Below, piece by piece: positions 11,810-39,606 of a stretch of DNA of 46,890 nt. How positions within the stretch are numbered: the first letter of the stretch is position 1; each line of letters begins with the position of its first letter. Source of the DNA: Elusimicrobiota bacterium (lineage in GTDB: Bacteria > Elusimicrobiota > Endomicrobiia > CG1-02-37-114 > JAHJSO01); NCBI GenBank assembly GCA_043826435.1, contig JBDRQF010000017.1, positions 1-46,890 on the forward strand, in the 5' to 3' direction. The notes beneath the pieces are model-generated. The model searched no databases, had not been told where the DNA came from, and was given only the letters and a program-made list of their open reading frames with translations. The translations under genes were made by a program, and so were the position numbers.

Positions 11810-11820
11810 TTTAATAGTGT

Positions 11821-13567: not shown

Positions 13568-13568
13568 T

Positions 13569-14579: not shown

Positions 14580-14632
14580 AAACTTTCAGTGCAGTATTTA
14601 TTCCCCCGTCCGACCCCGCCCTTGTGCCCCTC

Positions 14633-19268: not shown

Positions 19269-20978
19269 ATGACCCACTCTAAAATATTGCTCGTCCTTCT
19301 GGTCGTTGTAGGAATCAACTATTCCAATTCATTGAACAATAAGTTCGTTTGGGATGACATTCATTTAATAGTTGAAAACAAATTTATCAAAACAGCAAAA
19401 AACGCCCTGACAATAATAAACCCCAAAAGTTTTGTCCAGGTCATACCTGACTGCCCGAATGTTGCACGGCCGGTGTGGGTGCTTTCCGCAATCTTTGATT
19501 ATTCCATCTGGGGACTGAACCCCTTTGGACACCATCTCACAAATGTGCTCCTCCATCTTCTTAATTGCTTACTGGTGTATTTTTTTGTTTATTCAACTGT
19601 CAAAAACTTATCCGTATCATTAATGGCAGGGCTGATATTCGCAGCACACCCTGTCCTCACAGAATCGGTGGCTGTAGTGGGGTTCAGGTCGGATTTACTC
19701 GTAGTGTTTTTTTGTCTTTCGGGGTTTTTGCTGTTCATAAAAAGCGCAAAATCCGAAAGCAACCGGTCAAAAATTTTATATTTTATCGGGGCGAATATAT
19801 TCTATGTCCTGGGCGTACTCTCCAAGGGTATGGCGATAAGTTTACCCCTGTTGTTTATTTTATACGACTACTTTTTTATCTCGCAGTCAAAATTCAGCAA
19901 ACTCCTGCTGCGGCTCCCGTGGTATATCCCTTATCTGATTTTAATCGTCGGTTATCTCTGGTTTCTTGGGCCGAGGTTCATCTATGAAATACCAACGGAC
20001 CTCCCCCATGAGTTAAAACATCTGGCCGTATATACTTCGCCATTTACCAATTTATTTACAATGAGTAAAGTGTTTGCCCACTATGTATATCTGTTTTTTT
20101 TCCCGTTAAACCTGTGTGCTGATTACATTTATATGTTTCCTGTTTCTTATTCGCTCTATGATTTTTCAGTGATAATATCTTTAACTGTCCTGGTAGTACT
20201 TATCTCTATGGTATTTGTTTTGCTGAAAAAATTCAGAATAGTATCTTTTTCCATAATGTGGTTTTTTGTTACACTAATTCCGGTCTCCAATATTATACCG
20301 ATAGTTAATCTTGCCGCCGAGCGATACCTCTATCTGCCATCCATAGGTTTCTGTATGGCGGCAGCAGCCATATTCAACAAACTTTTCCCGAAGGGCTACA
20401 TCAAATGGACGCTGCTGGCTGTTTTAATAACCCTATATTCTGTTAGAACAATATCCCGCAATAAGGACTGGAAAGACAATTTTACCCTCTGGACAGCGAC
20501 TATCAGGACATCCCAGTCCTGCCCGAGAGCCCACTATAATCTCGGTAATATTTATAGGGAGGGACAATCTTACGAGCAGGCGATTGATTCCTATAAAAAA
20601 GCCATCCAGTACTATCCGCTCTATTCAAAGGCGTACAACAACATAGGACTTACCTGCGTTGATATGGGAAATCCGGACACCGGGCTTGAATACATTAAAC
20701 AGGCGATAAATATTGACCCAAAAAATGCAGAGGCGTACAACAACCTCGGGAATATCTATTTCCTGAAAGGCGAATATAATCAGGCATTAGAGATGTATAA
20801 ACAAACCATAAATATTAACCCCAAAATTGTTTCCGCATATAACAATATCGGTAGTATATATTTTGTCAGGAAAGATTATGAAAATGCAATCAGGAATTAC
20901 AATCTGGTGTTAAAATCGGACCCGAATAATCTACGGGCGCTCGCCAATCTCAAACGAGCACATGACAGTTCAAAATGA
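19269..20978 (+). CDS. Polytopic membrane glycosyltransferase-like protein with C-terminal TPR repeats (TMTC/GT39 protein O-mannosyltransferase-like).
   Basis: About 12 transmembrane helices with FVWDD near the N-terminus, then four or more TPR units (AHYNLGNIY, AYNNIGLTC, AYNNLGNIYF, AYNNIGSIYF). Confidence 0.7.
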   Translation: MTHSKILLVLLVVVGINYSNSLNNKFVWDDIHLIVENKFIKTAKNALTIINPKSFVQVIPDCPNVARPVWVLSAIFDYSIWGLNPFGHHLTNVLLHLLNCLLVYFFVYSTVKNLSVSLMAGLIFAAHPVLTESVAVVGFRSDLLVVFFCLSGFLLFIKSAKSESNRSKILYFIGANIFYVLGVLSKGMAISLPLLFILYDYFFISQSKFSKLLLRLPWYIPYLILIVGYLWFLGPRFIYEIPTDLPHELKHLAVYTSPFTNLFTMSKVFAHYVYLFFFPLNLCADYIYMFPVSYSLYDFSVIISLTVLVVLISMVFVLLKKFRIVSFSIMWFFVTLIPVSNIIPIVNLAAERYLYLPSIGFCMAAAAIFNKLFPKGYIKWTLLAVLITLYSVRTISRNKDWKDNFTLWTATIRTSQSCPRAHYNLGNIYREGQSYEQAIDSYKKAIQYYPLYSKAYNNIGLTCVDMGNPDTGLEYIKQAINIDPKNAEAYNNLGNIYFLKGEYNQALEMYKQTININPKIVSAYNNIGSIYFVRKDYENAIRNYNLVLKSDPNNLRALANLKRAHDSSK

Positions 20979-21015
20979 AAATAGAGAAAGTAAATTATCC
21001 CCTCCCCGAGGGGCG

Positions 21016-21783
21016 ATGATTTTTATGAAAAATAAGTATTTAGACCTTACCGTGCAAATGACATTGTCTGAGTTCAGGTTGCGGGACCAGGGGACTCTCC
21101 TTGGTTTCTTCTGGACTTTACTCCACCCCCTGCTTCTCTTTCTGATACTCAACCTCCTGTTCATAAAATGGATGGGAAAATTTGTGGAGCACTATCCCCT
21201 CTACCTGCTGGTCGGCATTGTACAGTGGAATTTCTTTGCCTCCGCAACCTCATACAGTTTATCGTCACTCATCCGGAGAGCGGAACTTGTAAAAAACTTC
21301 ACCTTCCCTCGCGAAATTATCGTGGTCTCGTCCGTCCTGACGGTTTTTCTGTCACACCTGTTTGAACTTCTCATACTTACGGCATTTCTGCTTTTGTCGG
21401 GGGCTACTTTTACGCCCCTGTTCTTTCTGGTCCCCTTAATAGTGCTTGTCCAGTTGATTCTGGTGATAAGCATTTCACTGCCGCTGTCTGCGTTGTGCGT
21501 GTATTACCGTGACATAGAAAGGATATGGGGACTGATAGTAACGGCTGGTTTTTTCCTTACGCCCATCTTTTACAGTTTGTCCGCCATTTCGGAACAGAGG
21601 CGGCTTCTCCTGTTGTTGAACCCGATGACGCACATAATCACTGCGTCCCGTTCCTGTCTGATATATAACAATGCTCCAAACTTCTCCCTGCTCGGGATAA
21701 TATTGTTGTTGAGCCTACTCATTCTGTTCATCGGGTTTAAAATCTTTAGAAAGATGCAAAGGAAGTTCGCCGAAATATTATGA
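21016..21783 (+). CDS. ABC-2 type polysaccharide exporter permease (Wzm/TagG-like).
   Basis: Six-transmembrane ABC-2 topology. Followed by a Wzt-type ATPase with a 4-nt overlap. Start taken at the internal ATG (MIFMKNK); ATG 21025 is an alternative. Confidence 0.7.
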   Translation: MIFMKNKYLDLTVQMTLSEFRLRDQGTLLGFFWTLLHPLLLFLILNLLFIKWMGKFVEHYPLYLLVGIVQWNFFASATSYSLSSLIRRAELVKNFTFPREIIVVSSVLTVFLSHLFELLILTAFLLLSGATFTPLFFLVPLIVLVQLILVISISLPLSALCVYYRDIERIWGLIVTAGFFLTPIFYSLSAISEQRRLLLLLNPMTHIITASRSCLIYNNAPNFSLLGIILLLSLLILFIGFKIFRKMQRKFAEIL

Positions 21784-22529
21784 ACGTAATTGAAGTTGAA
21801 AATCTCTCAAAAAGGTTCAGGGCCGGCGGGGAAAACCGCACCTCAATATTCAAGGGTATCTCTTCCGCTTTCACCGGTAGGAAAACGGCGGGGGCGTTCT
21901 GGGCGTTGCGGGACATTACTTTTTCCGTCCGAAAGGGCGAAATATTCGGCATAATCGGCCCGAACGGTTCGGGTAAGACAACATTATTAAAAACTATTGC
22001 GGGGGTGCTGTATCCTACAAGCGGCGTGGTGAGGGTCAGCGGAAGCATAAACTTCTTTCTGAGTTTAGGGGCAGGTTGCCAGAGGGAACTCACGGGCAGG
22101 GAAAATGTATATCTGTATGGCGCCCTTTTAGGGCTTAACCGTGGGACAATAAGAAAAAATTTTGACCGCATAGTGGATTTCGCCGGACTGCATGATTTCA
22201 TTGATACTGAACTGACACACTATTCAAGCGGGATGTACAGCCGGCTTACGTTCGCAGTGGCAATGCAGGCGGAGGCGGATATAATCTTGCTTGATGAAAT
22301 CATGGCGGTAGGTGATATATCTTTTCAGAATAAATGTTTTGAGACCATAAAGGAATTCCGGGACAGGGGAAAAACAATTTTGTTCGTATCACACTCGCTT
22401 GATTTGGTCAGTGAGTACTGCGGACGGAGTTTATATCTTGATAGGGGGAATATGGTGGCCTGCGGGGACACGAAGCAGGTGGTGGAACTATACAGGGGAA
22501 CGCCGACGGCAAACGATAAAAATGTATGA
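21780..22529 (+). CDS. Polysaccharide ABC exporter ATP-binding protein (Wzt/TagH-like).
   Basis: Walker A GPNGSGKTTLL, signature YSSGMYSRL, Walker B ILLDE. Confidence 0.8.
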   Translation: MNVIEVENLSKRFRAGGENRTSIFKGISSAFTGRKTAGAFWALRDITFSVRKGEIFGIIGPNGSGKTTLLKTIAGVLYPTSGVVRVSGSINFFLSLGAGCQRELTGRENVYLYGALLGLNRGTIRKNFDRIVDFAGLHDFIDTELTHYSSGMYSRLTFAVAMQAEADIILLDEIMAVGDISFQNKCFETIKEFRDRGKTILFVSHSLDLVSEYCGRSLYLDRGNMVACGDTKQVVELYRGTPTANDKNV

Positions 22530-23973
22530 AGTGGAGTTACTTAAAAAGCAATTATTATTTGAAAACAAAATAGAGGGTGAATACAGCGGAAAATGTATGG
22601 GGTTTCTGCTTGAAGCCGGAGATACCCTCACCATACAAAGGACGCCACCCGGAACGCTCCGCCCCGGCGACATTCTCGCCTTTGAACAAAATAACGGACT
22701 TTACGCCCACCGCATTATTTACAGGACATGCCTCAGTCGCAACGGGACGATGAGGACAAAGGGTGACATGGCTCTTGGTTTTGACAAACCCGTCAGTGAA
22801 TCCATGGTTATCGGCAGGGTCATCCGGATTGAGAAAAAATGGGGTTTCCTGGACCTGACTTCGCCATCAGGCAAAATGGTAAGTTACCTAACCGGGGTTT
22901 ACTCATATCTTGTTTACCTGATAGCGCGGCTGGCCGTAGGCACTTTCGTTTTTATGCTGGGCGGGCTCTCGCTGTCACGCAGGGTGGTTGACATAGCCGC
23001 ACGTATGAAACCCGTCCGGTTAGCCCTGCCTGCCATTTCGGTCATTAACAAAGCCCTTCACCGGTTATTCCAGTGCGGTTTTTTGGCTTTTCACCGGGCC
23101 GAACCCTGTATTTACATGGTCTTTGAGTTGCCGGTAAAATTCCTGATGATCTTTACGACATATTATTTCTGCGGCAGGACAGACCGGGAAATAAAATTGA
23201 GTACCTTAAAAAATTACGATAAAATGACTACCGTTGAAGGACAGGTTATGTGGATTGAAAAGGGACTGAATGAAGTTGAGAGATACATGGCAAACAAATA
23301 CCTCCTGTCCGGCAAAACAGGCGCCAACGTCCTGGTCCTTGGTTGCGGGGCAGGGCGGGAATCGTTTGCCCTGGCAAAAGAGGGTTTTTCCGTTACGGGG
23401 CTTGACAACAGCCCTAATATGATAAAAAGGGCTTCGGAATTGGCGCTCAGATACAACAACCTGCCGGGCAAGGCGGAATTCAGGGTTATGGACCTGGAAA
23501 AACTGTTGCCCGGCATCAGCCCGGAGTCATTTGATTATGCGGTTATGTTTGACACAATAATGTTTTTCCGCAGGGAAAACCGTATGAACTTATTCAAACA
23601 AATAAGAAATACTGTCAGGCCGGGCGGAAAACTTTTATTGTGGGATTACCATGAGAGCAGGTACTTTTTTTATCTGCTATTAAAAAAATACGGAATTTTC
23701 CTTCCGAAAACTTTTGTCCTGCCGGTTGATTTTTTTGCACGGGCATTCGTTGACACTGCGGGACACCTGGCAGGCAGGGGCGTCAGGGACCGCTCAATAG
23801 GCAATATTATCGTCCATCAATATACACACAGTGAACTGAAAAAGGAGATTGAAGCCGCCGGGTGGAAAACCGTTGAAATCGGCAGTAAACGGATCTTCCC
23901 ACTGGTTGATGACATAAAGGAAAAGGTCCGGATGGACTACTGCGTGGCCGTCCGTCCCGTTGACTATGAATAA
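22522..23973 (+). CDS. Fusion protein: N-terminal S24/S26-like peptidase-fold domain (GDSM-like motif altered to GDTL), a transmembrane segment, and a C-terminal class I SAM-dependent methyltransferase.
   Basis: AGDTLTIQRTPPGTLRPGDILAFE and TKGDMALGFDKPVSESMVIGRV match the signal-peptidase/LexA beta-barrel pattern. The methyltransferase glycine loop is VLVLGCGAGRES. Start at ATG 22522 overlaps the Wzt stop as ATGTATGA. Confidence 0.6.
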   Translation: MYEVELLKKQLLFENKIEGEYSGKCMGFLLEAGDTLTIQRTPPGTLRPGDILAFEQNNGLYAHRIIYRTCLSRNGTMRTKGDMALGFDKPVSESMVIGRVIRIEKKWGFLDLTSPSGKMVSYLTGVYSYLVYLIARLAVGTFVFMLGGLSLSRRVVDIAARMKPVRLALPAISVINKALHRLFQCGFLAFHRAEPCIYMVFELPVKFLMIFTTYYFCGRTDREIKLSTLKNYDKMTTVEGQVMWIEKGLNEVERYMANKYLLSGKTGANVLVLGCGAGRESFALAKEGFSVTGLDNSPNMIKRASELALRYNNLPGKAEFRVMDLEKLLPGISPESFDYAVMFDTIMFFRRENRMNLFKQIRNTVRPGGKLLLWDYHESRYFFYLLLKKYGIFLPKTFVLPVDFFARAFVDTAGHLAGRGVRDRSIGNIIVHQYTHSELKKEIEAAGWKTVEIGSKRIFPLVDDIKEKVRMDYCVAVRPVDYE

Positions 23974-25207
23974 AAAAAGACGGGTTGCTCTCGTTGTCCC
24001 CTATTTCCCTTACCCGCCCGTGCATGGTGGCATAGTAAGGATTTACAACTTACTCAAATTTATGGGACACATGCATGACATTTACCTTATTACTTTCATC
24101 CAGCGCCAGGAGCAGTTGCTGCACATCCCCGGACTGAAGAAGTACTGCCGTAAGGTTTTCCCCGTATCCTTTTCAAAAACGCCCCCGGATGACTCATACC
24201 CCTATGCCGTCAGGGAGTTTTATTGCATGGGGATGGCGCACACCATCCGGAGGGTTATCAAACAGGAAAAAATTGATTTACTGCATATAGAATATGCCAT
24301 CATAGCGGGCTACGTAAATTTTTCCTGTGGCATAAAAACCATACTCACACAACACGACACAAGCGACCTGTTTTTTGACAGGTCCATCCACAACCGCGAA
24401 CTGAGCGATAAAAACAGATACACCGAGTGGAAAAAACTCGTGCGGTATGAAACGAATATATGCGGGAAATTCAACAAGATAATTACCGTTACCCAAAAGG
24501 ATAAGAATGAACTGCAGGCGGTTCTGCCTTCCGCAGACATTGAGGTCGTGCCGACCGGCGTGGACACAAAATTTTTCAGCAGGGCGAAGACCGGGGGGAG
24601 GGCTACCTCCGGGAGTAATCCTGCTTACGGCTGTGCTGCCGGCAGGGACTTTGCCGGCGGGCGAACCTTCTTCCCTGCCGATGGATTCAATTTAACATAT
24701 GTCGGACATTACCACCATTATCCGAACGAAGACGCCATGGTTTACTTCTGCAAAAAAATACTCCCGCTTATTACAGGGAAACTTCCCAATGTGAAATTAT
24801 ACATCGTTGGCTCCGGCCCGACGGAAAAGATACTTAAACTTCAGGAGGACAGGCATGTGCGTGTTACAGGCGGTGTGCCCGACGTCCGGCCTTACCTAAA
24901 AAACTCTGACGTTTTTGTGGCTCCGTCTCGCGTCGGCGGAGGTATAAAGGGCAAAATCCTTGAGGCGATGTCTATGGGTGTGCCCGTCGTAACGAACAAA
25001 TTAGGCAGTTACGGCATAGAAGCAAGGCACGGGAAGGAAATCATTATCACCGATACACCCGGGGAATTCGCCGCCGAAACGGTTAAATTGCTAAAAAATG
25101 CGAGGCGACGCAAAGGGATTGCGGTAAATGCACGTGGACTGGTTGAAAGAAAATACGACTGGCGGGCAATAGCGAAACGACTGGCTGAAATATACCGGAA
25201 TATGTAA
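23960..25207 (+). CDS. Glycosyltransferase family 4 (GT-B fold).
   Basis: N-terminal VALVVPYFPYPPVHGG and the C-terminal GT4 signature region (GGIKGKILEAMSMGVPVV). Carries a GC-rich G/A-rich insert. Confidence 0.8.
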   Translation: MTMNKKRRVALVVPYFPYPPVHGGIVRIYNLLKFMGHMHDIYLITFIQRQEQLLHIPGLKKYCRKVFPVSFSKTPPDDSYPYAVREFYCMGMAHTIRRVIKQEKIDLLHIEYAIIAGYVNFSCGIKTILTQHDTSDLFFDRSIHNRELSDKNRYTEWKKLVRYETNICGKFNKIITVTQKDKNELQAVLPSADIEVVPTGVDTKFFSRAKTGGRATSGSNPAYGCAAGRDFAGGRTFFPADGFNLTYVGHYHHYPNEDAMVYFCKKILPLITGKLPNVKLYIVGSGPTEKILKLQEDRHVRVTGGVPDVRPYLKNSDVFVAPSRVGGGIKGKILEAMSMGVPVVTNKLGSYGIEARHGKEIIITDTPGEFAAETVKLLKNARRRKGIAVNARGLVERKYDWRAIAKRLAEIYRNM

Positions 25208-25222
25208 CCATTATCAACTATA

Positions 25223-25999
25223 TTATCCCTTTCTCGCCCACAGTGAGATTATGTCCTCGGTTTTCGGGACAAGGATCTCAGCGTCACTGAAACCCGCCCG
25301 CTCAAGCATCTTCACAATCGTTTCATCACTCGGGAAATACCTGTGTGCAGGCGCTTCCCTGAAAAACACCCCGTTTGTCCCCAACCGCCGGGCAACGTCT
25401 GAGTTTGCGTTTCCGGTTTCAAGAAATATGATCCCCCCTTTTTTCAGCAACCTGTAACACTTCCGTAAATTTGCAAGAGAGCTTTCGGAGTGTGCTATGT
25501 ATAAAAGCATCACTATTACATCAAACTTCTTTTTCGTACGGAAGCTCCTGAATCTTCCGTAAAAAACATTTTCTAATTTGTTTTTAAGGCACCGGTTATA
25601 GTTGTTTTTATTAAACTCCACCCCGTAACGTTCATATTTGTCCCTGCTGAAAAACGTCAGAAAATAGCCGTCCCCGCACCCGACGTCCAGTATTTTCCCC
25701 GACGGTTTATTTCTTTTGATAAAATCCGAATACACCCTGAACGCCTTTCTCCTGTCTCTGTTATACAGGACATATCTTTTATTACGGGGAATATGACGGC
25801 CGCGGTCGCTACTCTTACTGACCGTGACATAACCCATGTCGGGGTTGTGTTCCATGCTGTCAAATTTTCCCGGCAGAAAAAGCGACCCGCATTCCGGACA
25901 CCTGACGATGAAGTACATTAAACCCGTGCAGCCCTTTGTTATACCGAAAATCTCATACCTTTTTGAACCGCAGAGAATGCATGCTTTAATGTTCTTCAT
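25223..25999 (-). CDS. Class I SAM-dependent methyltransferase with an N-terminal Cys4 zinc ribbon.
   Basis: CILCGS...CPECGS ribbon; ILDVGCGDGYFL SAM-binding loop. Confidence 0.7.
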   Translation of the reverse strand: MKNIKACILCGSKRYEIFGITKGCTGLMYFIVRCPECGSLFLPGKFDSMEHNPDMGYVTVSKSSDRGRHIPRNKRYVLYNRDRRKAFRVYSDFIKRNKPSGKILDVGCGDGYFLTFFSRDKYERYGVEFNKNNYNRCLKNKLENVFYGRFRSFRTKKKFDVIVMLLYIAHSESSLANLRKCYRLLKKGGIIFLETGNANSDVARRLGTNGVFFREAPAHRYFPSDETIVKMLERAGFSDAEILVPKTEDIISLWARKG

Positions 26000-27438
26000 T
26001 TTCTTTCTATGTTACCCGCCCAGCCGGAAGGCGGTTTGAATCTAAAGTTATAGCCGGTTACATTTTCCGGAAGGACTATTTTTTCTCTTTTCCCTGTTAA
26101 ATTGCTGTACTGCGGGATTTTCCTGTAGTCAAAACCCATCAGGTGGATTGCAGCCATATCAACCGTTACAAAATCAAAACCCGCTATCAAAACGCCGCAC
26201 TTCCTGGGTGACGGCTCAACCGGGCCTTCCTTTTCTCCTGCGATTATACCGTCAATTAAGGAGAAAAATCTCCGCTGCACCTTTTTTCTGATTCTGCCTT
26301 TGCCATCGGCATAACGGACAATCCGGTTTAAGTCAAGTATCGTCCTCCATAGCGTGTCGTTGCCGTACCAGTCGCCCGCCGGCAGGTCAAAATTTACTCT
26401 CCCGCCGAGGACGGACTCCAGCGACTGCGGATGCGGCGCTGACAGACCTATGCTTTTGTATAGTTTCAAAAACGATTCCGGGGAATCCGACAACATCGCG
26501 CCAAATAACTTTAACTGCCTGTACTGTCTTGACCTCTCCGCCCCTTTAAGTTCGCCGTCTTTTATTTCGTCCCCACCGCGGGACGGGGGCCCCCAGGTGA
26601 AATGGGCAAGACAGTTCTTGTCCCCGCAGATGCCTATCATATTCTTAAGGTTAAGGGTAACGCCTGCTTTCTTATGCACCTTTAACTTGGGCAAACTTAT
26701 GATGACGTCCGACGATAAAACGCTCCGCGGGAGGACATACTCGTTCCTCTTGCCATTATGATACCGCCTGGCAGAACCGATTCTGCAGTCCAGGTAGTGC
26801 AGGTTTTCAAATCTTTTAAAATCACTGAACTCGCTGTCCCTGCCTAAATCAACATTAACGTAACCCATCGGGTCGCCTGTTAGGGCTTTCCTTTCGGGAA
26901 TAAACCCGCTGTTACAACTGAACCATTCCTTCCTTAAATCAAGCAAGGTTATCCCAACCCCCGATTTTTCCCCGTATAACTTCGTTATTTTTCTGAATCC
27001 CGTTTTTTGGATGATACGCTTAAAATCCGTGTCCACAAACGGGGCGTCGGCGATTGTTATGCTCCCCTTGCCTTTCAGGGCGATATATACATAGTCAATC
27101 ATTGCCCGGATAATTGAAGGATGCGTGATAATTGAAAATATGTCTTTGTCTTTCGGATGAAAATCCCTGACAAAATTTGGTTTCAACAATACCCTGTCGC
27201 CCGGTTTAATGAAACCGCCCAGCGGGTTCCAGGCAGGCGTGCCATAGCGTCTTTCATCAAGACGCAGTGACCTAAGCGCCTGTCTCACCATTGGATATAC
27301 TTTATTGTCCGGGTCTGTCCGGTTTTTGCCCCTGAAAGGATTTTCGGGGTAATGCCTGTTGGGGTGGTATGGCGGTATGGTGGGGTAGGTCGCTTTGGGG
27401 TCACGTATTATGGTTATTTCCGGTTTATCGTTCTTCAT
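25996..27438 (-). CDS. DUF362-family domain protein.
   Basis: LLKPNFV and HP-rich N-terminal region typical of DUF362. Its start overlaps the upstream gene by 1 nt and its stop overlaps the downstream start by 4 nt. Confidence 0.5.
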   Translation of the reverse strand: MKNDKPEITIIRDPKATYPTIPPYHPNRHYPENPFRGKNRTDPDNKVYPMVRQALRSLRLDERRYGTPAWNPLGGFIKPGDRVLLKPNFVRDFHPKDKDIFSIITHPSIIRAMIDYVYIALKGKGSITIADAPFVDTDFKRIIQKTGFRKITKLYGEKSGVGITLLDLRKEWFSCNSGFIPERKALTGDPMGYVNVDLGRDSEFSDFKRFENLHYLDCRIGSARRYHNGKRNEYVLPRSVLSSDVIISLPKLKVHKKAGVTLNLKNMIGICGDKNCLAHFTWGPPSRGGDEIKDGELKGAERSRQYRQLKLFGAMLSDSPESFLKLYKSIGLSAPHPQSLESVLGGRVNFDLPAGDWYGNDTLWRTILDLNRIVRYADGKGRIRKKVQRRFFSLIDGIIAGEKEGPVEPSPRKCGVLIAGFDFVTVDMAAIHLMGFDYRKIPQYSNLTGKREKIVLPENVTGYNFRFKPPSGWAGNIERK

Positions 27439-28715
27439 TACATCTCTTCCAAAAATTCAAGAGATTTTTTTGTCCACTTATCAATGAATATATGCCGGTT
27501 CGTCTCCCTTAATTTCTCATATCCCGGAACAGCACCGGCTGTTTTACCGCAGTGGTGATATACAAAAACGTCTCCTGCGACCATTATTTTATAGCCCATC
27601 TGTCTCACCCTGAGACAATAATCATAGTCCTCGTAACCGCCCCAGTTGAACCTTTCATCCAGGAACCCTGTTTTATCAAGAACCTCCCGTTTTATCAGCG
27701 TGCAAAAGGCAATAACCCTGTGGACGTCGTAATACGTCCCCGGGTTTGCCAGTTTAAGGGCATGGGCACACATTTGTATATCAACTGCCGTCTTTAATTT
27801 TTTTGTCCCGGGGACAACCTGCTGTCCTACGGCCGCATTCGTACAGGGACCGACAATGCCGATGGCTTTATTGCTTTCAATGCATTTAATCATACCGTCA
27901 AGCCATCCGTCAGTCAGGACAACGTCGTTGTTCAACAGGACTATGTAATCTCCCCTGCAACGTTTAAGCCCGATGTTGACCGCCTTTGCAAAAGACAGGT
28001 TTTCAGAATTGAGTACTAGTTTCGCTTTCTTTACGGATTTCAGGTATCTTTTCGTACCACCGGCGGAACCGTTATCAATAAGAATTAGTTCATACGGAAG
28101 ACGGGTATGTTTTTTAAAACTTTCAATGCACTCTCTGGTATATTTCATGCCATTGTATGCAATGATAATAATACTCGTTAATTTTTTCCTGCCCGATGGA
28201 CGCAGGGGTATCCGGCTCCGCCTGCCCGCGACAATACCCCTTATCCAGGAATCCAGAACCTCAATCTTTGAATCAAAGGGGAGTTTCTGCCGTAAAAAGC
28301 GTTTGTCCTTACCGCTACGGGCTATGATTAAGTCGGCATAACCATAAACATCCGTCCCACTGCCTGGCGGGTCAAACAAACATATTACAAAATCCGCCAA
28401 AGGGCACAACTGACGCAATTGAGGGAGATACTTTTCAGCCAACCCTTCAGAAACAATCAGGACTAATTTGATTTTGTTCTTTTTCAGTCCCCCGTCCCTT
28501 AACAGTCCCGACAGTATTTCCCCTGAGAGGTCAATCTTCTCAAAATCGGAAGCGGTTAAACCCGCCGCCTCCAGGTCATTTACTCCGTCAAAATGGGGAA
28601 CAAAGAATAGCCCGTTCCGTTTTGACAGGGCGGCGATAATTGAGTTAAGTTTCTTCCTGTGTGAATTAAAGGAATAAGAGTACGGGCTTACAAACAATAT
28701 TTTTGATTTGTCCAT
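27438..28715 (-). CDS. Two-domain glycosyltransferase: unknown N-terminal domain of about 190 aa plus a GT2 catalytic domain.
   Basis: SIIIIAYNG...LILIDNGS...VLLNNDV...YEDYDY (GT-A DxD/ED motifs). Confidence 0.7.
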   Translation of the reverse strand: MDKSKILFVSPYSYSFNSHRKKLNSIIAALSKRNGLFFVPHFDGVNDLEAAGLTASDFEKIDLSGEILSGLLRDGGLKKNKIKLVLIVSEGLAEKYLPQLRQLCPLADFVICLFDPPGSGTDVYGYADLIIARSGKDKRFLRQKLPFDSKIEVLDSWIRGIVAGRRSRIPLRPSGRKKLTSIIIIAYNGMKYTRECIESFKKHTRLPYELILIDNGSAGGTKRYLKSVKKAKLVLNSENLSFAKAVNIGLKRCRGDYIVLLNNDVVLTDGWLDGMIKCIESNKAIGIVGPCTNAAVGQQVVPGTKKLKTAVDIQMCAHALKLANPGTYYDVHRVIAFCTLIKREVLDKTGFLDERFNWGGYEDYDYCLRVRQMGYKIMVAGDVFVYHHCGKTAGAVPGYEKLRETNRHIFIDKWTKKSLEFLEEM

Positions 28716-28724
28716 ATCCGTGTT

Positions 28725-29918
28725 TCAGAATTCTGCAAGGAATTCTTTTATGTCTTTTTTGATGATTTCAATGTCTCCGTTGTATTTTTTTGCAATCTCA
28801 ACGGCTATGTCAGCCGCTGCTATGCCGTCCTGTCTTAACCGCCATATTTCGTAACCTATGCCGTCCATTTCGTAAGTAACGCCGGACTCAATGGGCGAAA
28901 GCAATATGGACCCGTCAACATTCTGACATATCATTTTGTTTTTAACGTTTAATTTGTCTATGCTGCAGGATATGGGTCTGCCGGCGACCCATCCGAAAAA
29001 TCTGCCGGCGAATGTTGATATTTCAAATACGAGGTCAAAAAAATGAAAAATGTGCGGGCGGAGCACCATATCCCTGCAACATTTAAACGCCCTTTTGAAA
29101 AACTCCAGAAACTCGCGCGGGGCAATCGGCGAAGGAAATTCTACAACAGCGCGGTATTTCTTTATCAACCGGGAAGAATAATATTTTCTTTTTGTTTCCT
29201 GCAACAGGAAGGAAAGAAAATTATTTTCGTGGACAAGACGGACAACCGCTTCCGGGACGTATTTTAATTTATACCCTGAAAGCAAAACCCTCCAGGAAAG
29301 TTCTGCATCCTCAACGGTCGCTCCGATGAACGCCTCATCAAAAAGGCCGACGTTGAATAATACATCCCTGCGATAAACGGCATTTGCAGTCCAGAGGTAA
29401 GGGAGGACGGACTCTGAAAGCGTCGGAGCACGCCACATATGTTTTGAGTACGCGTAATCTAAGTATTTTTCAATGAGACCCGCAGGTTCATAGGACAGCG
29501 CCCTGCCCCCGCACCCGGCAGTAACGTGCCCCGCGGTACCGTGCCCCGCGGTACCGGGTTCCATATTACCGCTCCCCGCGCCGCCTGCAGTGGGTTTATT
29601 TTCAAATGCGTCAATAAGATTTTTTAACCAGGACGAATCAACTACGCAATCGCCGTCGGTAAACGCAACGAATTCACCACTTGCCTCCGCCAACCCCCTG
29701 TTGCGCGCCACGGCAGCGGAGTGTTTCTTATCTTCAAAAATATATTTAACGGGATAGCGTTTTATAATTTCCGCAGTCCTGTCAGTTGAATTATTATCAA
29801 CGACAATTACCTCAAGTAGTTCTCCGGGGTAATCAAGACGCATCAGGGCATTGAGACATAAAGGCAGGTTTTTTTCTTCATTAAAGACAGGGACAATAAC
29901 GCTTGCTTTTGGCAACAT
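28725..29918 (-). CDS. GT2 glycosyltransferase fused to a C-terminal PqqD-family (RiPP-recognition-element-like) domain.
   Basis: N-terminus SVIVPVFNEE...VIVVDNNSTD...FTDGDC is GT2. The C-terminal 90 aa, ILLSPIESGVTYEMDGIGYEIWRLRQDGIAAADIAVEIAKKYNGDIEIIKKDIKEFL, follow the PqqD pattern. GGAGGA Shine-Dalgarno upstream. Confidence 0.7.
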   Translation of the reverse strand: MLPKASVIVPVFNEEKNLPLCLNALMRLDYPGELLEVIVVDNNSTDRTAEIIKRYPVKYIFEDKKHSAAVARNRGLAEASGEFVAFTDGDCVVDSSWLKNLIDAFENKPTAGGAGSGNMEPGTAGHGTAGHVTAGCGGRALSYEPAGLIEKYLDYAYSKHMWRAPTLSESVLPYLWTANAVYRRDVLFNVGLFDEAFIGATVEDAELSWRVLLSGYKLKYVPEAVVRLVHENNFLSFLLQETKRKYYSSRLIKKYRAVVEFPSPIAPREFLEFFKRAFKCCRDMVLRPHIFHFFDLVFEISTFAGRFFGWVAGRPISCSIDKLNVKNKMICQNVDGSILLSPIESGVTYEMDGIGYEIWRLRQDGIAAADIAVEIAKKYNGDIEIIKKDIKEFLAEF

Positions 29919-30186
29919 GTCAAACGAACCATCCTCCGGCGGGCCGGGATAAAATACGCTCTGACGGACTTAACAAATATCATCTAACAAATAGATTTAA
30001 CAGCGGGCGCCCAATATTTATGAAATGGTTTTCACTCGTAAACTACTGATGACGGGGTATGTCCTTTGATTATGTTTTCTACAAAATATCCCGCACCTGA
30101 CAGGCATTAACTACCCAGAAAAACAGGAGCTTTCTTTATCCTGCGGTACTTAATCAACTTCGGCTTTGAATAAGACAGTTTTTTCT

Positions 30187-30477
30187 TCATTTTGCGCCTC
30201 CTGTAACAATTTTGACAATTTTTTCCCTACTTAAATTCTTAATAAATTCAAGGGTATCACTATTCGCCTTCTTCTGCGTAACGTTGTATTTCCCGGCAAT
30301 AAATTTCGTTACTTGCTGTAGGTTTTTGTCCGCCATAAATAAATTCCATATCTCCGTCCCCGTTTCATCAAGGGAATAATACCAACCCGTCTTCTGGTCT
30401 AAAATCACCGTTTCCTTGTTAACCGTTCTCCAGACAATTCCATCCTGCGATTCAACTCGAATCATTTCTTCCTTCAT
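30187..30477 (-). CDS. Stand-alone PqqD-family small protein (peptide-chaperone/RRE-like).
   Basis: 96 aa. WRTVNKETVILDQKTGWYYSLDETGTEIWNLF...VTKFIAGKYNV...DTLEFIKNL fits the PqqD/RRE fold. Confidence 0.65.
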   Translation of the reverse strand: MKEEMIRVESQDGIVWRTVNKETVILDQKTGWYYSLDETGTEIWNLFMADKNLQQVTKFIAGKYNVTQKKANSDTLEFIKNLSREKIVKIVTGGAK

Positions 30478-30565
30478 TATCGTCCCCTTCCCCCCTTCCG
30501 GTAACCCTCATGGTGTTCCGGGCGTTGAGCCCCGGCCGCACATTGGTGACAGCAGGATATTTTCC

Positions 30566-30597
30566 CCGGAGCACCTGAAGTGCTCCCGTGTTTTTTT
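30566..30597 (+). terminator. Rho-independent-terminator-like hairpin (GGAGCAC-ctgaa-GTGCTCC followed by T7), on the plus strand opposite the operon.
   Basis: A 7-bp perfect GC-rich stem plus a T-run. No plus-strand gene lies upstream, so it may stop antisense transcription or act as an RNA structure within the minus-strand mRNA. Confidence 0.3.
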
Positions 30598-30949
30598 AAT
30601 TGACTTCAATATAGTCCTTTTTAATGAATCCCTTATACCAATTCTCATATTCTTCGGGCGTAACCAAATGGATCTCAAAAGGAGCGCCCGGAAACTTTTC
30701 TTTTATTTTGACTTTGAGTTCTGCCTGCCCGAATAAGTCCCCCGGAATTTCAGGGGAGATAATTAAAATGTCAATATCGCTGCCGGGGCGATATTCCTGC
30801 CGGACTGCCGAGCCGAATACCATGACCTTTTCATCTGTAAAAAAATTTCCGACTATTCTTTTAATTTCTCTTGCATGGAACATATAATTTTGAAAATAGT
30901 ATTCGGACTTTTGATTTTCTTCGGTTAATATTTTATATAAACTTTTCAT
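30596..30949 (-). CDS. Minimal nucleotidyltransferase (MNT/Pol-beta superfamily).
   Basis: VFGSAVRQEYRPGSDIDILI is the GS-x(9-13)-DxD motif. 117 aa. Overlaps the HEPN gene by 17 nt. Confidence 0.75.
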   Translation of the reverse strand: MKSLYKILTEENQKSEYYFQNYMFHAREIKRIVGNFFTDEKVMVFGSAVRQEYRPGSDIDILIISPEIPGDLFGQAELKVKIKEKFPGAPFEIHLVTPEEYENWYKGFIKKDYIEVN

Positions 30950-31334
30950 TTATTCCTTTCTCTAAAAATTTGAAAACACTTTCAGCAAATTCTATAATTT
31001 TTTGAATCTCTTCTTTATTAAATTCTCTCGGAAAATATCTGCTCGTAATATATGCATCTTCCAAACCTCTGAATTGCAAAGAATGTTCCCGGTAAAATTC
31101 AAGAATATTTTTTGACTCATAAACCTCTGCTAACTCATTAAATAGTTTGTCCAAATAATGTGTTTTGGGAAAATCACCCGCTTTTAAAAAGATTAGATAC
31201 TTTATCCATAACTGAACCGCCTGTTCAATATCTAATGCAGATAAATTATATCTTGCTTTTTGAAAATCTTCCCCTGCCCTTTCCCAGAATTCTTTTGCTC
31301 TTTTCTTTAGAAATTCAGTGTTCTCTTGTATCAT
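30933..31334 (-). CDS. HEPN-domain protein, partner of the MNT.
   Basis: 133 aa, all-helical pattern, and a Rx4-6H-like region (RYFPREFNKEEIQKI) near the C-terminus. Tightly coupled to the MNT gene. Confidence 0.6.
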   Translation of the reverse strand: MIQENTEFLKKRAKEFWERAGEDFQKARYNLSALDIEQAVQLWIKYLIFLKAGDFPKTHYLDKLFNELAEVYESKNILEFYREHSLQFRGLEDAYITSRYFPREFNKEEIQKIIEFAESVFKFLEKGINEKFI

Positions 31335-32483
31335 TTATTCTCCGTCCATATTTTTTCTCAAAAAATCCACCATAACGCGGGCATTGCTGGCGCTGTCCGT
31401 TCCCAATGTAAACCTGTAGCAGCGTGACATAGCGATTACCTTCAAAAACACCCGCAACCTTGAGACGGCAATCCTGAACTTGGCAAATAAGTCCTTTATT
31501 CCCGTCCGCAAAAAATATTCCACCATCTGCGGCAAACCCAGTCCGAGGACACCGTTTGTTATAAATGGAAGAATAGCGCTCGTTGGACAAATCTTTGTAA
31601 TTCTTGGATTATCTGCCGCTTCTCTCTCCCCGATTAAAATAATAGCAGGTTCGGTTCTGTCGGATGCAGCGGATGCGCCTCTGCCTGAGATTTTATCTCC
31701 GAAATACTCCAAATCAATCAGGATCTTATGACCGTGCTTCCTACGAGAGAAATTATACAAATATTTTTCGGGAATGTCAAGGAGCGTGTCGGGTGGTGCC
31801 CCCTTCCTTACGCCTATCCTTATTGGAAAAGGCAAAATTTCTCCCTTTTTTGACACAAGTGGTGTGTCGTCTGCAAGAAGTTTGACCCCGTTATGTTTCA
31901 GTAATTCCAGGGCGAGGGTGGTCTTTCCCGCCCCCTGTGGAAGCACCAATAAAACCCCTTTACCATAAAACGAAATCCCCATGGCATGCAAACGATGTAT
32001 TCCTCTTTTATCCAACAATTCACCTGACCTGGAAAGAATCAAAAGATAAACCAGTTCATGCATCAGGTCACTGTTTTGTGTATAGACCCTGCCGGTTTCT
32101 TCCTTATAGTCATATATCGTCAGTGCTTCACCGTGATAGTCAACATATCTCTTGTTTTCAAAATCATAAGAAATTGAATCGGGGTTGTACAGCGATGCCC
32201 TGACTGCAGGTATTTGACTGAAATCCGGCGTTGTTAAAAAACTATGGATTTTTATTGCAGGGACGGGGGTTGTGGGACTCGCCGTGGTTTCATGGGTTGC
32301 CGGGGCTCCGGGAGTTGCGGGGGCGGGCTCGGGGGCGAGTGCAGGATTTTCCGTTATATCCGGTACCGTTATATCCGAGACGAAGTAAGCAAAATCCCGG
32401 GCTAAAAGTTCGGCGATATCGCTGTCGTCCGACTCTAAATATACCTTTACTCCATAGAAGTTGAAATGTTTGGAACTCTTCAT
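31335..32483 (-). CDS. HPr-kinase-related serine kinase (HprK C-terminal-domain-like).
   Basis: HAMGISFYGKGVLLVLPQGAGKTTLALELLKHNGVKLLADDTPLV matches the HprK P-loop region (GxxGxGKS/T...ADD). The N-terminal domain is joined by a Pro/Ala/Thr-rich linker. Confidence 0.7.
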   Translation of the reverse strand: MKSSKHFNFYGVKVYLESDDSDIAELLARDFAYFVSDITVPDITENPALAPEPAPATPGAPATHETTASPTTPVPAIKIHSFLTTPDFSQIPAVRASLYNPDSISYDFENKRYVDYHGEALTIYDYKEETGRVYTQNSDLMHELVYLLILSRSGELLDKRGIHRLHAMGISFYGKGVLLVLPQGAGKTTLALELLKHNGVKLLADDTPLVSKKGEILPFPIRIGVRKGAPPDTLLDIPEKYLYNFSRRKHGHKILIDLEYFGDKISGRGASAASDRTEPAIILIGEREAADNPRITKICPTSAILPFITNGVLGLGLPQMVEYFLRTGIKDLFAKFRIAVSRLRVFLKVIAMSRCYRFTLGTDSASNARVMVDFLRKNMDGE

Positions 32484-32764
32484 AAATTATACCTTTAACC
32501 GTACTATGCCGGTCCGGTTTTTCCCGACCATTATACCCTCTGCCTCTATGAAAAAGACCATTCCAAACCTGACAAGAATATTATATCAAAATTGGCACAA
32601 ATTTTTAATGTCATATCATTATTTCGGTAATTCCATTTTCGTTCTGAAATAAGATCCTTTCCCATTTTATTATTTACTCCTTTATTATAGTATAGTAACT
32701 AAACTATAGTAAAATCTTTATTATAGTATGGTAAAATAAAAATTGATTGTCAACCCCCGCCGTT
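32484..32764 (-). promoter_or_regulatory. AT-rich leader/promoter region of the HprK-related operon. It has direct repeats CTTTATTATAGTAT(A/G)GTAA at 32679-32698 and 32716-32738, plus a third TATAGTAAAAT at 32704-32715.
   Basis: 281 bp with no ORF and several TATAAT-like hexamers on the minus strand. The repeated 19-mer looks like an operator or transcription-factor site array. Confidence 0.4.
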
Positions 32765-33796
32765 TTATTTAACCAGGCCTCTCAAAAAACCCAGTCCGTA
32801 GGAAACATGTCCGACCGGGAACAATAAAAAGAGACACGGAAATATCCTGATATCTCTGTACTGGACGGCGGTTAAAAATGAAAAGAACACATTCAGGACA
32901 AAGTAAGAAAACAACGGAAAAAGATAAATCTGACTGCGGGAAAAGATAAGTGAAATTAAATAAACTATAAATAAACTTGGGAGAATAAAATACGGGGAGA
33001 ACGAGCGTGGCACACGCCGCGTCATCTGCCCCCTGCCGCAACCGTACTTAAAAAACTGTTTCGCAAACCCGGTTAGCGTTGCCCGTCGCCTGTGATAAAC
33101 AACCAAATCGGGGGTGTGTAACATTGCGTATCCCCTTGAGGCGAGCGTAACCATAAGAAGATTCTCTTCATTGCAGACAAGTTTTTCATCAAACACAACC
33201 TTTTCATTCACAAAAAGTTTCCTGCGGATAGCCAGGTTACACAAGATCAATGATTTGTCGTCAGCCGGGCGGTCTCCGCCTGAAGACACATACCTGCGTC
33301 TCACATTTGCGCTGCCGAATGGCGAAACGAGGAGGTGCCCGGAACACTTCTGTAAAAGATTGCCCGCCGGCGGGGTTAAATTCGGCCCGCCTATTATATC
33401 CGTATCCACATACCTGCCGAACTTCTCCCTGCATATCCCGATTATGTCCCTGTCAACGATTATATCGTCATCAAGAAAATATATAATTTCACCGGAGGTG
33501 TGTTTCAGCGCCTCGTTCCTTGCCCCGCCGTTGGACATTCTCTCAATGGGAATGAGCCGTAAATTGGGATTCAAAAGGGACGCCTGTTCCAAATAGGTAT
33601 GGCTTGCATGGTCGTCGCCGTTGACTATGACCACCATCTCCCATTCATCATTTTGTGGAGTGGGATCTGGGGTCAGGTCTTGACATTTGACATGTGGGGT
33701 GTGTGCGTAAATACTTTCAAGGCATTCCTTAAGATGCCCCAGCCTTTTGTATGTGATAATTACTGCACTAATAATAATAGGGTCAGGTCTTGACAT
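32765..33796 (-). CDS. GT2 glycosyltransferase whose start codon and an internal in-frame segment are supplied by REP-like repeat copies.
   Basis: IISAVIITYKRLGHLKECLESIYAHT, then EMVVIVNGDD, are the GT2 N-terminal strands. The roughly 14 codons between them (PHVKCQDLTPDPTPQNDEW) are encoded by REP copy C. The first codons MSRPDP come from REP copy D1. Confidence 0.65.
   Translation of the reverse strand: MSRPDPIIISAVIITYKRLGHLKECLESIYAHTPHVKCQDLTPDPTPQNDEWEMVVIVNGDDHASHTYLEQASLLNPNLRLIPIERMSNGGARNEALKHTSGEIIYFLDDDIIVDRDIIGICREKFGRYVDTDIIGGPNLTPPAGNLLQKCSGHLLVSPFGSANVRRRYVSSGGDRPADDKSLILCNLAIRRKLFVNEKVVFDEKLVCNEENLLMVTLASRGYAMLHTPDLVVYHRRRATLTGFAKQFFKYGCGRGQMTRRVPRSFSPYFILPSLFIVYLISLIFSRSQIYLFPLFSYFVLNVFFSFLTAVQYRDIRIFPCLFLLFPVGHVSYGLGFLRGLVK
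33668..33705 (+). repeat. REP-like repeat, copy C (ggggtcaggtcttgacatttgaca), inserted in-frame within the GT2 coding sequence.
   Basis: Core 33669-33692. Confidence 0.7.
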
Positions 33797-36477: not shown

Positions 36478-36494
36478 GCCACCTTTGGGATCAT

Positions 36495-36519
36495 GGGTCA
36501 GGTTTTGCATCATTTGACA
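36495..36519 (+). repeat. REP-like repeat, copy E (gggtcaggttttgcatcatttgaca).
   Basis: Sits at the 5' end of the GT39-like gene. Confidence 0.65.
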
Positions 36520-38655: not shown

Positions 38656-39606
38656 TCATATCTTTGACTCGATTCTTTTCAGTATATTGCTTAATCGTCG
38701 GTCAATTTTACATTTTTCTTCCAACCTCTTCACAATCTTGGTTATACTTGAATAGTGAAGTCCACCAAAAATATCCGAAAGTATCTTTAATCTCATGTCG
38801 GTGTATTTTCTTAAAAAATATATCGCCATTTTTCGCGGTCCACCTTTATTCTTGAATATTTTATCCATAGAAATTCCATAATGATTACTCACCAGAGTAA
38901 GAATTTCTTCTTTTGATTTTCTCTCCTTAAGTTTTCTACACAAAGGGATTTCCCGGTCTATTTTAACCTTTGAAATCCTTTGTTTTATTTCCTGGGTAAA
39001 TTCTTTCGTGCCGACTATGAGTTGCCCGTATATCTTTTCCCTAATCTTATCCCAAGTAATCCCCCTACCTTCCATGCAAAATTGTTTATACATTCGTTGG
39101 GCCTTTTGCTTTTCAGCAGAAAATCTGCTCAATATCCAATCAGTATTTACCACTTCACCAGCCCTCATACCGAGATAGTCACGAGAACTGCTCATTCGGT
39201 AATTCTCAACTTTGTGCACTAAACCCGCACGCAAAGGATTCAGGTGGATATACCGCGTTAGTTCCAGAAGATAATTTTCCCTGTCAACAATTAATGCTCT
39301 ATACCTACCTTGAAACAAATGACCTACACGGGCATACTTACGATTGAAATAAATCGTATAAAGTGTCTGGATAAAGTGCATCGCTCTGGTTAAATTCGCT
39401 CCCCGGGTTTCAACCAATAAATGGTAGTGATTCGGCATAAAAACATAAGCGTAGAAAATCAACTGATATCGCTCTTTTACCTGACACAATATTTCAAACA
39501 ACTTACGGTAATCACTTTTTTCTCTAAATATTTGCCTCCGTTCGTTACCTCGCGCCGTAACATGATATACTGCCCCGGCAAACTCTAATCTAAGCGGTCT
39601 CGCCAT
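38656..39606 (-). CDS. REP-associated tyrosine transposase-like protein: IS200-like Y1 HUH domain plus a C-terminal DnaA-C-like helix-turn-helix domain.
   Basis: YHVTARGN, the HUH motif MPNHYHLLVE and the catalytic-Tyr region ENYRMSS. The C-terminal 90 aa (AIYFLRKYTDMRLKILSDIFGGLHYSSITKIVKRLEE) resemble the DnaA C-terminal DNA-binding domain. Flanked by inverted REP-like copies F and G. Confidence 0.7.
   Translation of the reverse strand: MARPLRLEFAGAVYHVTARGNERRQIFREKSDYRKLFEILCQVKERYQLIFYAYVFMPNHYHLLVETRGANLTRAMHFIQTLYTIYFNRKYARVGHLFQGRYRALIVDRENYLLELTRYIHLNPLRAGLVHKVENYRMSSSRDYLGMRAGEVVNTDWILSRFSAEKQKAQRMYKQFCMEGRGITWDKIREKIYGQLIVGTKEFTQEIKQRISKVKIDREIPLCRKLKERKSKEEILTLVSNHYGISMDKIFKNKGGPRKMAIYFLRKYTDMRLKILSDIFGGLHYSSITKIVKRLEEKCKIDRRLSNILKRIESKI

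Follow-up and report, generated by a model that had tools for sequence, protein, structure and literature searches.

A candidate RRE-dependent peptide phospho-glycosylation gene cluster in an Elusimicrobiota bacterium

The window analysed here is a stretch of 46,890 nucleotides from an Elusimicrobiota bacterium (contig JBDRQF010000017.1 of assembly GCA_043826435.1). It carries a minus-strand operon that encodes an HprK-fold kinase, a stand-alone PqqD-family protein and a family 2 glycosyltransferase (GT2) with a PqqD domain at its C-terminus (GT2-PqqD). PqqD-type domains are the recognition elements (RREs) of pathways for peptides made on the ribosome and modified after translation (RiPPs). 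The proteins of the open reading frames (ORFs) from 12.8 to 46.8 kb were scanned for domains with Pfam and NCBIfam. A previous sequence-only reading had described eight minus-strand ORFs between 25223 and 32483, and these are present at those positions with operon-like packing. Its calls of HEPN, NTP_transf_2, PqqD, GT2-PqqD, a second GT2 (GT2b), DUF362 and methyltransferase were reproduced with Pfam and NCBIfam, and the PqqD and HprK assignments withstood profile and fold tests. The boundaries that it gave, 25223–32764, were wrong. A membrane-anchored GT2 gene (GT2_up) lies beyond one end, and beyond the other lie the genes of a peptidase–methyltransferase and of the Wzm/Wzt exporter, which together span 20962–23973. 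All these features are listed in Table 1.

The same reading had found no convincing precursor gene and had proposed a scan of the intergenic gaps for small ORFs. An overlooked ORF of 27 codons adjoins the PqqD gene, and the statement no longer holds, because a conserved family of peptides of 25–45 residues flanks GT2-PqqD genes. The ATG of the window ORF overlaps the stop codon of the PqqD gene (ATGA), and a GGAGG sequence is located 6 nt upstream. The encoded peptide is MKKKLSYSKPKLIKYRRIKKAPVFLGS. The family shares the motif K-x-Y-x-K-P-x-L-x-K-[YF]. After it comes a variable tail of only 11–25 residues, which is rich in small residues and contains Ser, Thr or Cys. Gene contexts were fetched for six GT2-PqqD homologs (L113–L118), giving eight non-redundant loci together with the window and locus L001. 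Homologs of the peptide adjoin the GT2-PqqD genes of L001, L113, L114, L116 and L118. With the window included, the peptide is thus found beside GT2-PqqD in all six non-redundant loci with usable flanks; L115 and L117 could not be used for the search because the contig edge falls right at the GT2-PqqD gene. The L001 homolog, MKKKAYVKPKLTKYRRLRKIIAVAS, is encoded directly upstream of the GT2-PqqD gene, in a locus whose kinase is only 45% identical to that of the window. Ribosome-binding sites of the GGAGG type are located 4–10 nt upstream of all six peptide ORFs. According to a profile scan of about 48,000 small reading frames from 118 loci and the window, these peptides alone are matched, and the next match has an E value of 0.8. 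When each peptide was left out of the hidden Markov model in turn, the omitted peptide ranked first among the 48,000 or so frames in six of six cases. The E values were 2e-8 to 1e-5 for five peptides and 0.074 for that of L118, and the next unrelated match had an E value of at least 0.35. Four of the peptides were scanned against NCBIfam, and no family was matched; the sole match was a non-significant one to lasso_cyano (E 0.12).

The YxxPxL part of the motif is that by which the leaders of lasso peptides and of linear polyphosphorylated peptides (LPPs) bind their RREs, the general form being [Y/W]xxPx[L/V/I/F/A] (PMC13381572). This match was counted for a peptide pathway. The best NCBIfam match of the stand-alone RRE is likewise to a lasso PqqD chaperone (lasso_PqqD_Bac, E 2.1e-15, below cut-off), and HprK-like kinases tailor lasso peptides of the paeninodin type (PMC9266682). 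The window might accordingly be taken for part of a split lasso-peptide cluster, with the genes of its cyclase and B2 protease at another place in the genome. We regard such a split as extremely improbable. The scanned ORFs of the window and the eight GT2-PqqD loci showed neither an Asn-synthase-like cyclase nor a transglutaminase-like B2 protease, and the tail of the window peptide after the motif has no Asp or Glu for a macrolactam. The sequence-only reading, in which the region encodes a peptide-directed kinase and glycosyltransferase system and not a lasso cluster, is maintained.

The C-terminal PqqD domain of the window GT2-PqqD protein scores above the Pfam gathering threshold, and its glycosyltransferase domain retains the conserved VVDNNSTD, DxDC and ED motifs. 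The predicted structure (pLDDT 76) has a GT-A fold joined to an RRE topology. A fold search with this model returned only generic GT-A/GT2 proteins (TarS, TarP, cellulose and hyaluronan synthases) and gave no clue to the acceptor. About 12 full-length homologs with 31–39% identity were found. The gene is often present in two or three copies per locus, and arrays are observed in L113, L114, L115 and L117. Orthologs of GT2b adjoin GT2-PqqD genes in L001 (3e-88) and L117 (5e-113), and a weaker match is located in L113. The GT4 enzyme of the window has an ortholog in L001 (6e-118), and GT4 genes follow the GT2-PqqD arrays of L114, L115 and L118.

Table 1. Position and domain content of the operon, the candidate precursor and the flanking genes in the window
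Feature	Length (aa)	Position	Strand	Remarks
Membrane-anchored GT2 (GT2_up)	343	32765..33796	-	Pfam GT2 8e-13
HprK/PEPCK-fold P-loop kinase	382	31335..32483	-	Low-complexity insertion at about aa 40-75
HEPN protein	133	30933..31334	-	Pfam HEPN 5.5e-26
Minimal nucleotidyltransferase (MNT)	117	30596..30949	-	Pfam NTP_transf_2 1.9e-12; NCBIfam MntA 2.3e-5, below cut-off
Stand-alone PqqD-family RRE	96	30187..30477	-	Pfam PqqD 7.2e-14
Candidate precursor peptide	27	30107..30190	-	YxxPxL leader motif; C-terminal Ser
GT2 with C-terminal RRE (GT2-PqqD)	397	28725..29918	-	Pfam GT2 4.8e-32, PqqD 1.3e-7
Second GT2 (GT2b)	425	27438..28715	-	Pfam GT2 at aa 181-348; first 175 aa without domain match
DUF362 protein	480	25996..27438	-	Pfam DUF362 3.6e-30
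S-adenosylmethionine (SAM) methyltransferase	258	25223..25999	-	Pfam Methyltransf_23 2e-22; N-terminal CxxC...CxxC Zn-ribbon-like motif
GT4 glycosyltransferase	 	23960..25207	+	Pfam Glyco_trans_1_4 6.9e-30; last gene of the Wzm-Wzt-peptidase operon, convergent
SipW/Sec11-type signal-peptidase-I-like domain, transmembrane segments and SAM methyltransferase	483	22522..23973	+	TIGR02228, 2.8e-6
Wzm (ABC2_membrane) and Wzt (ABC_tran), ABC-2 exporter	 	20962..22529	+	Pfam

An HprK-like kinase gene is present in five of the eight GT2-PqqD loci (the window, L001, L114, L115 and L116), or in five of the six contigs of at least 6 kb. The co-occurrence of kinase and fusion gene, a check that the sequence-only reading had proposed, is therefore borne out. 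Synteny is closest in L001, where the order GT2_up, kinase, PqqD, peptide, GT2-PqqD, GT2b, DUF362 and methyltransferase is found together with GT4, peptidase, Wzt and Wzm genes; HEPN and MNT genes are absent there. The methyltransferase at that position in L001 is of the NodS type and has no sequence-level homology to the 258-residue enzyme of the window. Conservation of the eight genes as a unit did not hold beyond L001, and DUF362 is encoded in the window and L001 only. L116 combines the same precursor family with the complete core set of an LPP cluster, that is, SpI peptidase, HprK-like kinase, NTP_transf_5 and exporter, and L114 has this core set with no exporter on the contig. In L113 (Omnitrophota, 8557–14846), the precursor family and two GT2-PqqD genes are accompanied by genes of a MiaB-like radical SAM protein, a UDP-galactopyranose mutase and an aldo-keto-reductase/radical SAM/SPASM fusion. 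Here the same scaffold seems to be served by another set of tailoring enzymes.

The window kinase is 100% identical to the hypothetical protein ABIJ11_02365 of an Elusimicrobiota metagenome-assembled genome (MAG). Its HprK match was the weakest of the domain assignments; it reaches 26.6 bits, where the cut-off is 33.3, and covers only about 50 residues around the P-loop. The full-length HprK/P model (TIGR00679, cut-off 240 bits) is not matched, the score being 26.5 bits, and the scores for the HprK_rel_A, HprK_rel_B and ScmC models of NCBIfam are far lower than those models require. A profile of the kinase family gave only generic P-loop matches, and no HprK, among PDB sequences. The fold of the whole protein is closest to that of PEPCK. 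The kinase shares the HprK fold superfamily, yet is not HprK/P itself. Low-complexity insertions rich in Pro, Ala, Thr and Gly are present in the kinase and in GT2-PqqD (residues 108–130). Both are absent from all aligned homologs and have pLDDT values below 50 in the models.

In order to describe the surroundings of the kinase, 112 loci around its homologs were collected, and their reading frames were scored with the window proteins and an iterated PqqD profile. Twelve closer kinase sequences were used for the collection, as an alignment of 39 sequences had no sufficiently conserved stretch. The loci fall into 72 non-redundant kinase groups, of which 30 are flanked by 5 kb or more on each side (well-flanked); the counts of kinase loci below refer to these 30.

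The HEPN and MNT genes were found in a single kinase locus, the window. They are absent from all 29 other well-flanked kinase loci and all seven other GT2-PqqD loci, and so from L001. The sequence-only reading had included the pair among the components of the system, with the nucleotidyltransferase by implication in the role of PsmN or LppN. PsmN adds a hexose to the phospho-Ser of pseudomycoidin (PMC9266682), nucleotidyltransferases of the Pol-beta fold recur in related loci (NTP_transf_5 in L114 and L116, a Pol-beta-like protein in L007, AbiEii in L113), and the pair is packed tightly inside the operon. We nevertheless consider a working role for it very unlikely. Besides its distribution, the pair has a toxin-antitoxin-like architecture, and its G+C content is somewhat lower (0.40–0.41) than that of the neighbouring kilobases (0.43–0.49). 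Specific kinship of the window MNT with the nucleotidyltransferases of the sister loci was rejected, since only a GS..DxD motif is common to them. The kinase and PqqD genes abut directly in L001, L028 and L044, with an overlap of 4 nt or 28–33 bp between them; in L001, the kinase stop codon overlaps the PqqD start codon. The HEPN/MNT segment of 857 bp thus interrupts this junction in the window. As the pair is confined to the window, it looks like an inserted toxin-antitoxin-like module, and it is likely to be a secondary insertion outside the pathway.

Small pairs of HEPN and MNT genes are a classic mobile toxin-antitoxin architecture. The window pair resembles the type VII system HepT/MntA in its small HEPN protein and minimal nucleotidyltransferase, overlapping genes and patchy distribution; its presence in 1/30 kinase loci would suit a mobile module. 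It differs in that the HEPN protein is of the PF05168 type, not DUF86, and has no NCBIfam match, in that the MntA model gives 24 bits against a cut-off of 60, and in the order, HEPN and then MNT. At the edge of the presumed insertion, right after the MNT stop codon, a perfect GC-rich palindromic hairpin of 7 bp is located at 30568–30586; a T-run follows it on the plus strand only. Three different Pol-beta-fold nucleotidyltransferases are encoded in GT2-PqqD clusters, namely AbiEii (L113, 18639–20053), NTP_transf_5 (L114, 9422–11260) and the window MNT. Their recurrence could be a coincidence, since these MAGs often carry toxin-antitoxin modules, or could mean that an enzyme of this kind is needed repeatedly.

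On the plus strand, the N-terminal domain of the peptidase–methyltransferase is a candidate leader peptidase. The ATG of this ORF overlaps the Wzt stop codon, and the call of 483 residues is confirmed by P0241. The TIGR02228 match of the window domain is below the cut-off, and the free-standing orthologs of L001 (2.3e-14) and L118 (8.5e-17) are above it. Human SEC11C and SEC11A can be aligned with the L118 ortholog (E about 4e-6), which has Cys at the position of the Ser nucleophile. His63, Arg64 and Asp82 of the domain are invariant, and the nucleophile position is occupied by Cys25 (triad Cys25-His63-Asp82). According to an exhaustive HMMER search, the domain has 1678 relatives, most of which have Ser at this position; Cys is found in the window, L001, L118 and several relatives. 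Hydrophobic segments and the SAM methyltransferase follow the domain in the window protein. SipW-type domains are encoded in five of the eight GT2-PqqD loci. They are free in L001 and L118, and the window domain is fused to a methyltransferase. In L114 and L116 the fusion partner is NTP_transf_5, and the domain profile matches the N-termini of these NTP_transf_5 proteins (PF14907, E 9e-49 and 2e-43). In L007 the profile also matches a Pol-beta-like protein encoded beside PqqD. Further matches are small peptidases in the kinase loci L017, L020, L024 and L036, which have no PqqD gene. The fusion proteins are located at 9422–11260 in L114, 4996–6690 in L116 and 12809–14740 in L007. As for export, an ABC-2 pair follows the kinase in the GT2-PqqD locus L116.

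We conclude that the region is probably the core of an RRE-dependent, RiPP-type pathway for peptide phospho-glycosylation, with a logic like that of LPP and paeninodin. Gene content, domain and fold identities, the adjacency of the peptide family to GT2-RRE genes and the co-occurrence counts were established directly. From these we infer that the RRE binds the leader, which residue is phosphorylated, what accepts the sugars, in what order the steps occur, and that cleavage and export take place. In the proposed pathway, the 27-residue peptide would be translated in coupling with the RRE gene, and its K-x-Y-x-K-P-x-L-x-K-Y segment would be bound both by the stand-alone PqqD/RRE protein and by the RRE fused to GT2. 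The HprK-fold kinase would phosphorylate a Ser or Thr of the short tail at the C-terminus, which is probably Ser27 in the window peptide. Related kinases act on Ser residues of linear precursors, PadeK on the C-terminal Ser (PMC9266682) and LppK on Ser3 (PMC13381572). The RRE-fused GT2, then GT2b and possibly the flanking GT2 and GT4 enzymes would then attach sugars, either to this residue itself or to the phosphate on it, and the product may be capped by methyltransferases. The leader would be removed by the membrane SipW-like peptidase domain with its putative Cys-His-Asp triad, and the Wzm/Wzt ABC-2 transporter would export the product.

The C-terminal residue is Ser in the window and L001 peptides. 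In the peptide family, the tail Ser or Thr is located 15–20 residues after the motif Tyr, as against Tyr+18 for the phospho-Ser of LPP. Transfer of the LPP register, with cleavage after Tyr+15 and phospho-Ser at Tyr+18, would give the cores VFLGS, AVAS, ATGAP, SSPG, AVCGQSGTNLT and TALGPNPTPLFPS. In all six predicted cores the first residue is small, and Ser, Thr or Cys occurs among positions 1–5, which is suggestive only.

The neighbourhood of the kinase bears on a rival explanation. The most conserved neighbour of the window kinase subfamily is the transmembrane (TM)-anchored GT2 of the GT2_up type, found in 21/30 loci and usually abutting or overlapping the kinase gene. Wzt is found in 15/30 and Wzm in 11/30. 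PqqD is located within 8 kb in 5/30, with one further at 9 kb, and DUF362 in 2/30 (the window and L001). The pair of kinase and TM-anchored GT2 genes is conserved across the loci L003–L036, often with Wzm/Wzt, and without an RRE or peptide; an example is the compact kinase–Wzm–Wzt–GT2 module of L004. GT9, PMT_2, GT4 and methyltransferase genes lie around the cluster in the window, and the fold nearest to that of its kinase is PEPCK, a small-molecule kinase. The region could therefore be an ordinary ABC-transporter-dependent locus for a cell-envelope glycan. The kinase, the membrane GT2 and Wzm/Wzt would then act on a lipid-linked or other non-peptide acceptor, with phosphorylation of, for example, a glycan terminus or a lipid carrier, and the PqqD proteins and the small ORF would be accessory or unrelated. 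However, this explanation does not account for the RRE domains on GT2 enzymes, for the conserved leader-motif peptide that always adjoins them, or for the presence in the same loci of the SipW-type peptidase and NTP_transf_5 genes, which are hallmarks of LPP. A PqqD gene is located within 10 kb of the kinase in 6/30 loci, at a distance of 35 bp or less in three; over about 600 kb in total, this is far above the few per genome expected by a rough estimate. The scanned window proteins included no polymerase and no phosphoglycosyltransferase that would initiate a glycan. We judge an ordinary glycan locus to be unlikely.

Several results weigh against the peptide pathway. The window kinase subfamily is mainly tied to the TM-anchored GT2 and Wzm/Wzt in loci without an RRE or a peptide, and 25/30 kinase loci have no PqqD within 8 kb. 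The kinases of L114, L115 and L116 belong to other subfamilies, with only 29–34% identity to the window kinase over the P-loop region as aligned for L114 and L115. Given this linkage and this low identity, the kinase might serve the glycan machinery in place of the peptide. In L113, the peptide and GT2-RRE genes are present and no kinase lies within 10 kb. The Pfam and NCBIfam matches of the kinase and the peptidase domain of the window are below the curated cut-offs. The C-terminal residue is Ser in only three of the six peptides, and a predicted core of about 4–13 residues would be unusually short. All the loci compared come from metagenomes. The kinase of L116, for its part, matches HprK_rel_A (5.7e-15) and ScmC (1.3e-3). 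Other conserved small ORFs were looked for in the kinase loci without PqqD, and none was found. These kinases may have substrates whose genes lie elsewhere; otherwise the kinase would have its role in glycan assembly and would have been recruited from there into the peptide pathway.

A third reading can be put forward tentatively, and we think it unlikely to prove right. The peptide may be a primer from the ribosome and no end product: a Ser or Thr of its tail would be phosphorylated, a glycan would be built on the phosphate by the RRE-fused and neighbouring glycosyltransferases, the SipW-like peptidase would cut off the leader at the membrane, and Wzm/Wzt would export the phosphoglycan linked to the peptide. 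If so, the polysaccharide locus and the RiPP cluster would be one pathway to a peptide-primed envelope glycoconjugate. This would explain why LPP and paeninodin clusters lie in capsule loci, and why the kinase subfamily travels with the membrane GT2 and Wzm/Wzt.

The nearest known systems are the LPPs of Bacillota, represented by lppAKBSDN in Paenibacillus alginolyticus (Popov et al., Nat Commun 2026, PMC13381572). LPP clusters are embedded in capsule loci, and their final products are suspected by those authors to be glycosylated by nearby glycosyltransferases (PMC13381572). The window cluster, too, is embedded in a polysaccharide-type locus rich in glycosyltransferases. Both have a discrete RRE and an HprK-like kinase, and both are without a cyclase. 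A SipW-type signal peptidase I is also common to them, in the window as a domain below the cut-off with orthologs above it. Since the core logic is the same, the earlier description of the region as a distinct, poorly characterised system needs updating. The differences concern several components. No NTP transferase of the LppN type (PF14907) was found among the window proteins scanned, whereas L114 and L116 encode one. The exporter is ABC-2 (Wzm/Wzt) and not MsbA-like. Of the extended LPP leader motif YxxPxVLxHQxIxFETxxS (PMC13381572), only the YxxPxL part is common to the window family. The precursors have 25–45 residues here and 35–200 in LPP clusters, and the hosts are Elusimicrobiota and Omnitrophota in place of Bacillota. 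Here an RRE is fused to between one and three of the GT2 enzymes. LppS has Ser29, whereas the window peptidase has Cys and is fused to a methyltransferase (to NTP_transf_5 in sister loci). The window further has an extra DUF362 gene and a distinct kinase subfamily tied to the TM-anchored GT2. These mixed results indicate that the cluster is LPP-like or paeninodin-like in its working but falls outside the LPP family in its present definition.

In the paeninodin and pseudomycoidin systems (PadeK, PsmK, PsmN), an HprK-like kinase likewise acts on a linear precursor, with the C-terminal Ser as the acceptor, and a hexose is then added to the phospho-Ser. The candidates for glycosylation in the window are GT2 enzymes, not NTP_transf_5, and the window is without the lasso cyclase and B2 protease. 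RRE-fused glycosyltransferases with the same fusion, PF00535 plus RRE, are listed among newly seen architectures in PMC12710340 (mSystems 2025), with no precursor, partners or function described. The HprK_rel_A/B and SynChlorMet ScmC cassettes, which are defined by bioinformatics only, also have an HprK-like protein adjoining a PqqD homolog, presumably for peptide modification; the window operon differs in that it has no paired radical SAM/SPASM maturase. The best NCBIfam match of the GT2 domain is the mycofactocin model TIGR03965 (MftF), with 137 bits against a cut-off of 280, and MftA, MftB and MftC are absent from the operon. The match to the glycocin SunS model (TIGR04195, E 5.5e-8) has 32 bits against a cut-off of 350, and the protein is not assigned to that family.

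What is new here is the assignment of a precursor family and partner genes to RRE-fused GT2 enzymes. Glycosyltransferases with their own leader-binding domain, encoded beside a short conserved precursor, link sugar addition directly to a peptide. Chemistry of this kind, so far assigned to Bacillota, would thereby reach uncultivated members of Elusimicrobiota and Omnitrophota. They also place the SipW-type leader peptidase in new fusions, with methyltransferase or NTP_transf_5, and with Cys replacing the catalytic Ser. The RRE-fused GT2 enzymes could serve as leader-programmable tools for peptide glycosylation, and the peptide, RRE, kinase and GT2-RRE form a compact candidate set.

As for non-coding elements, an Rfam scan of the window gave no match, and terminator-like sites in the window were not above chance (8 against 10.3 expected). 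Neither a weak hairpin 3' of the peptide stop codon (30104–30090) nor the folding of the 192-nt spacer (z 0.96) counts as evidence.

Some further genes of the window were observed. An open frame on the minus strand covers positions 1–7842 with at least 2614 codons and runs past the window start. It holds 3.1 tandem copies of a 357-bp (119-residue) unit at 3–1091 and probably encodes a huge repeat-rich surface protein. At 38656–39606 (-), an IS200-like Y1 transposase domain is fused to the C-terminal helix-turn-helix of DnaA; this gene is located between the glycan genes and that of a B12-binding radical SAM protein (39739–41337, -). The best NCBIfam matches of the latter are RiPP C-methyltransferases (ApyD 1.6e-26, below cut-off). 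A specific tie to its L115 counterpart was rejected, as the identity of 23% is at the family level only. A radical SAM/SPASM protein is encoded at 17108–18139 (-), adjoining a beta-helix/NosD protein. Both radical SAM proteins are possible extra tailoring enzymes, but nothing tied them specifically to the cluster. Two membrane glycosyltransferases of the GT-C type (PMT_2), one of them fused to TPR repeats, and a TPR protein with no Pfam match in its N-terminal half are encoded at 44568–46835 (+), 19269–20978 (+) and 34855–36513 (-). We take this PMT_2/TPR architecture to be reminiscent of protein O-mannosyltransferases.

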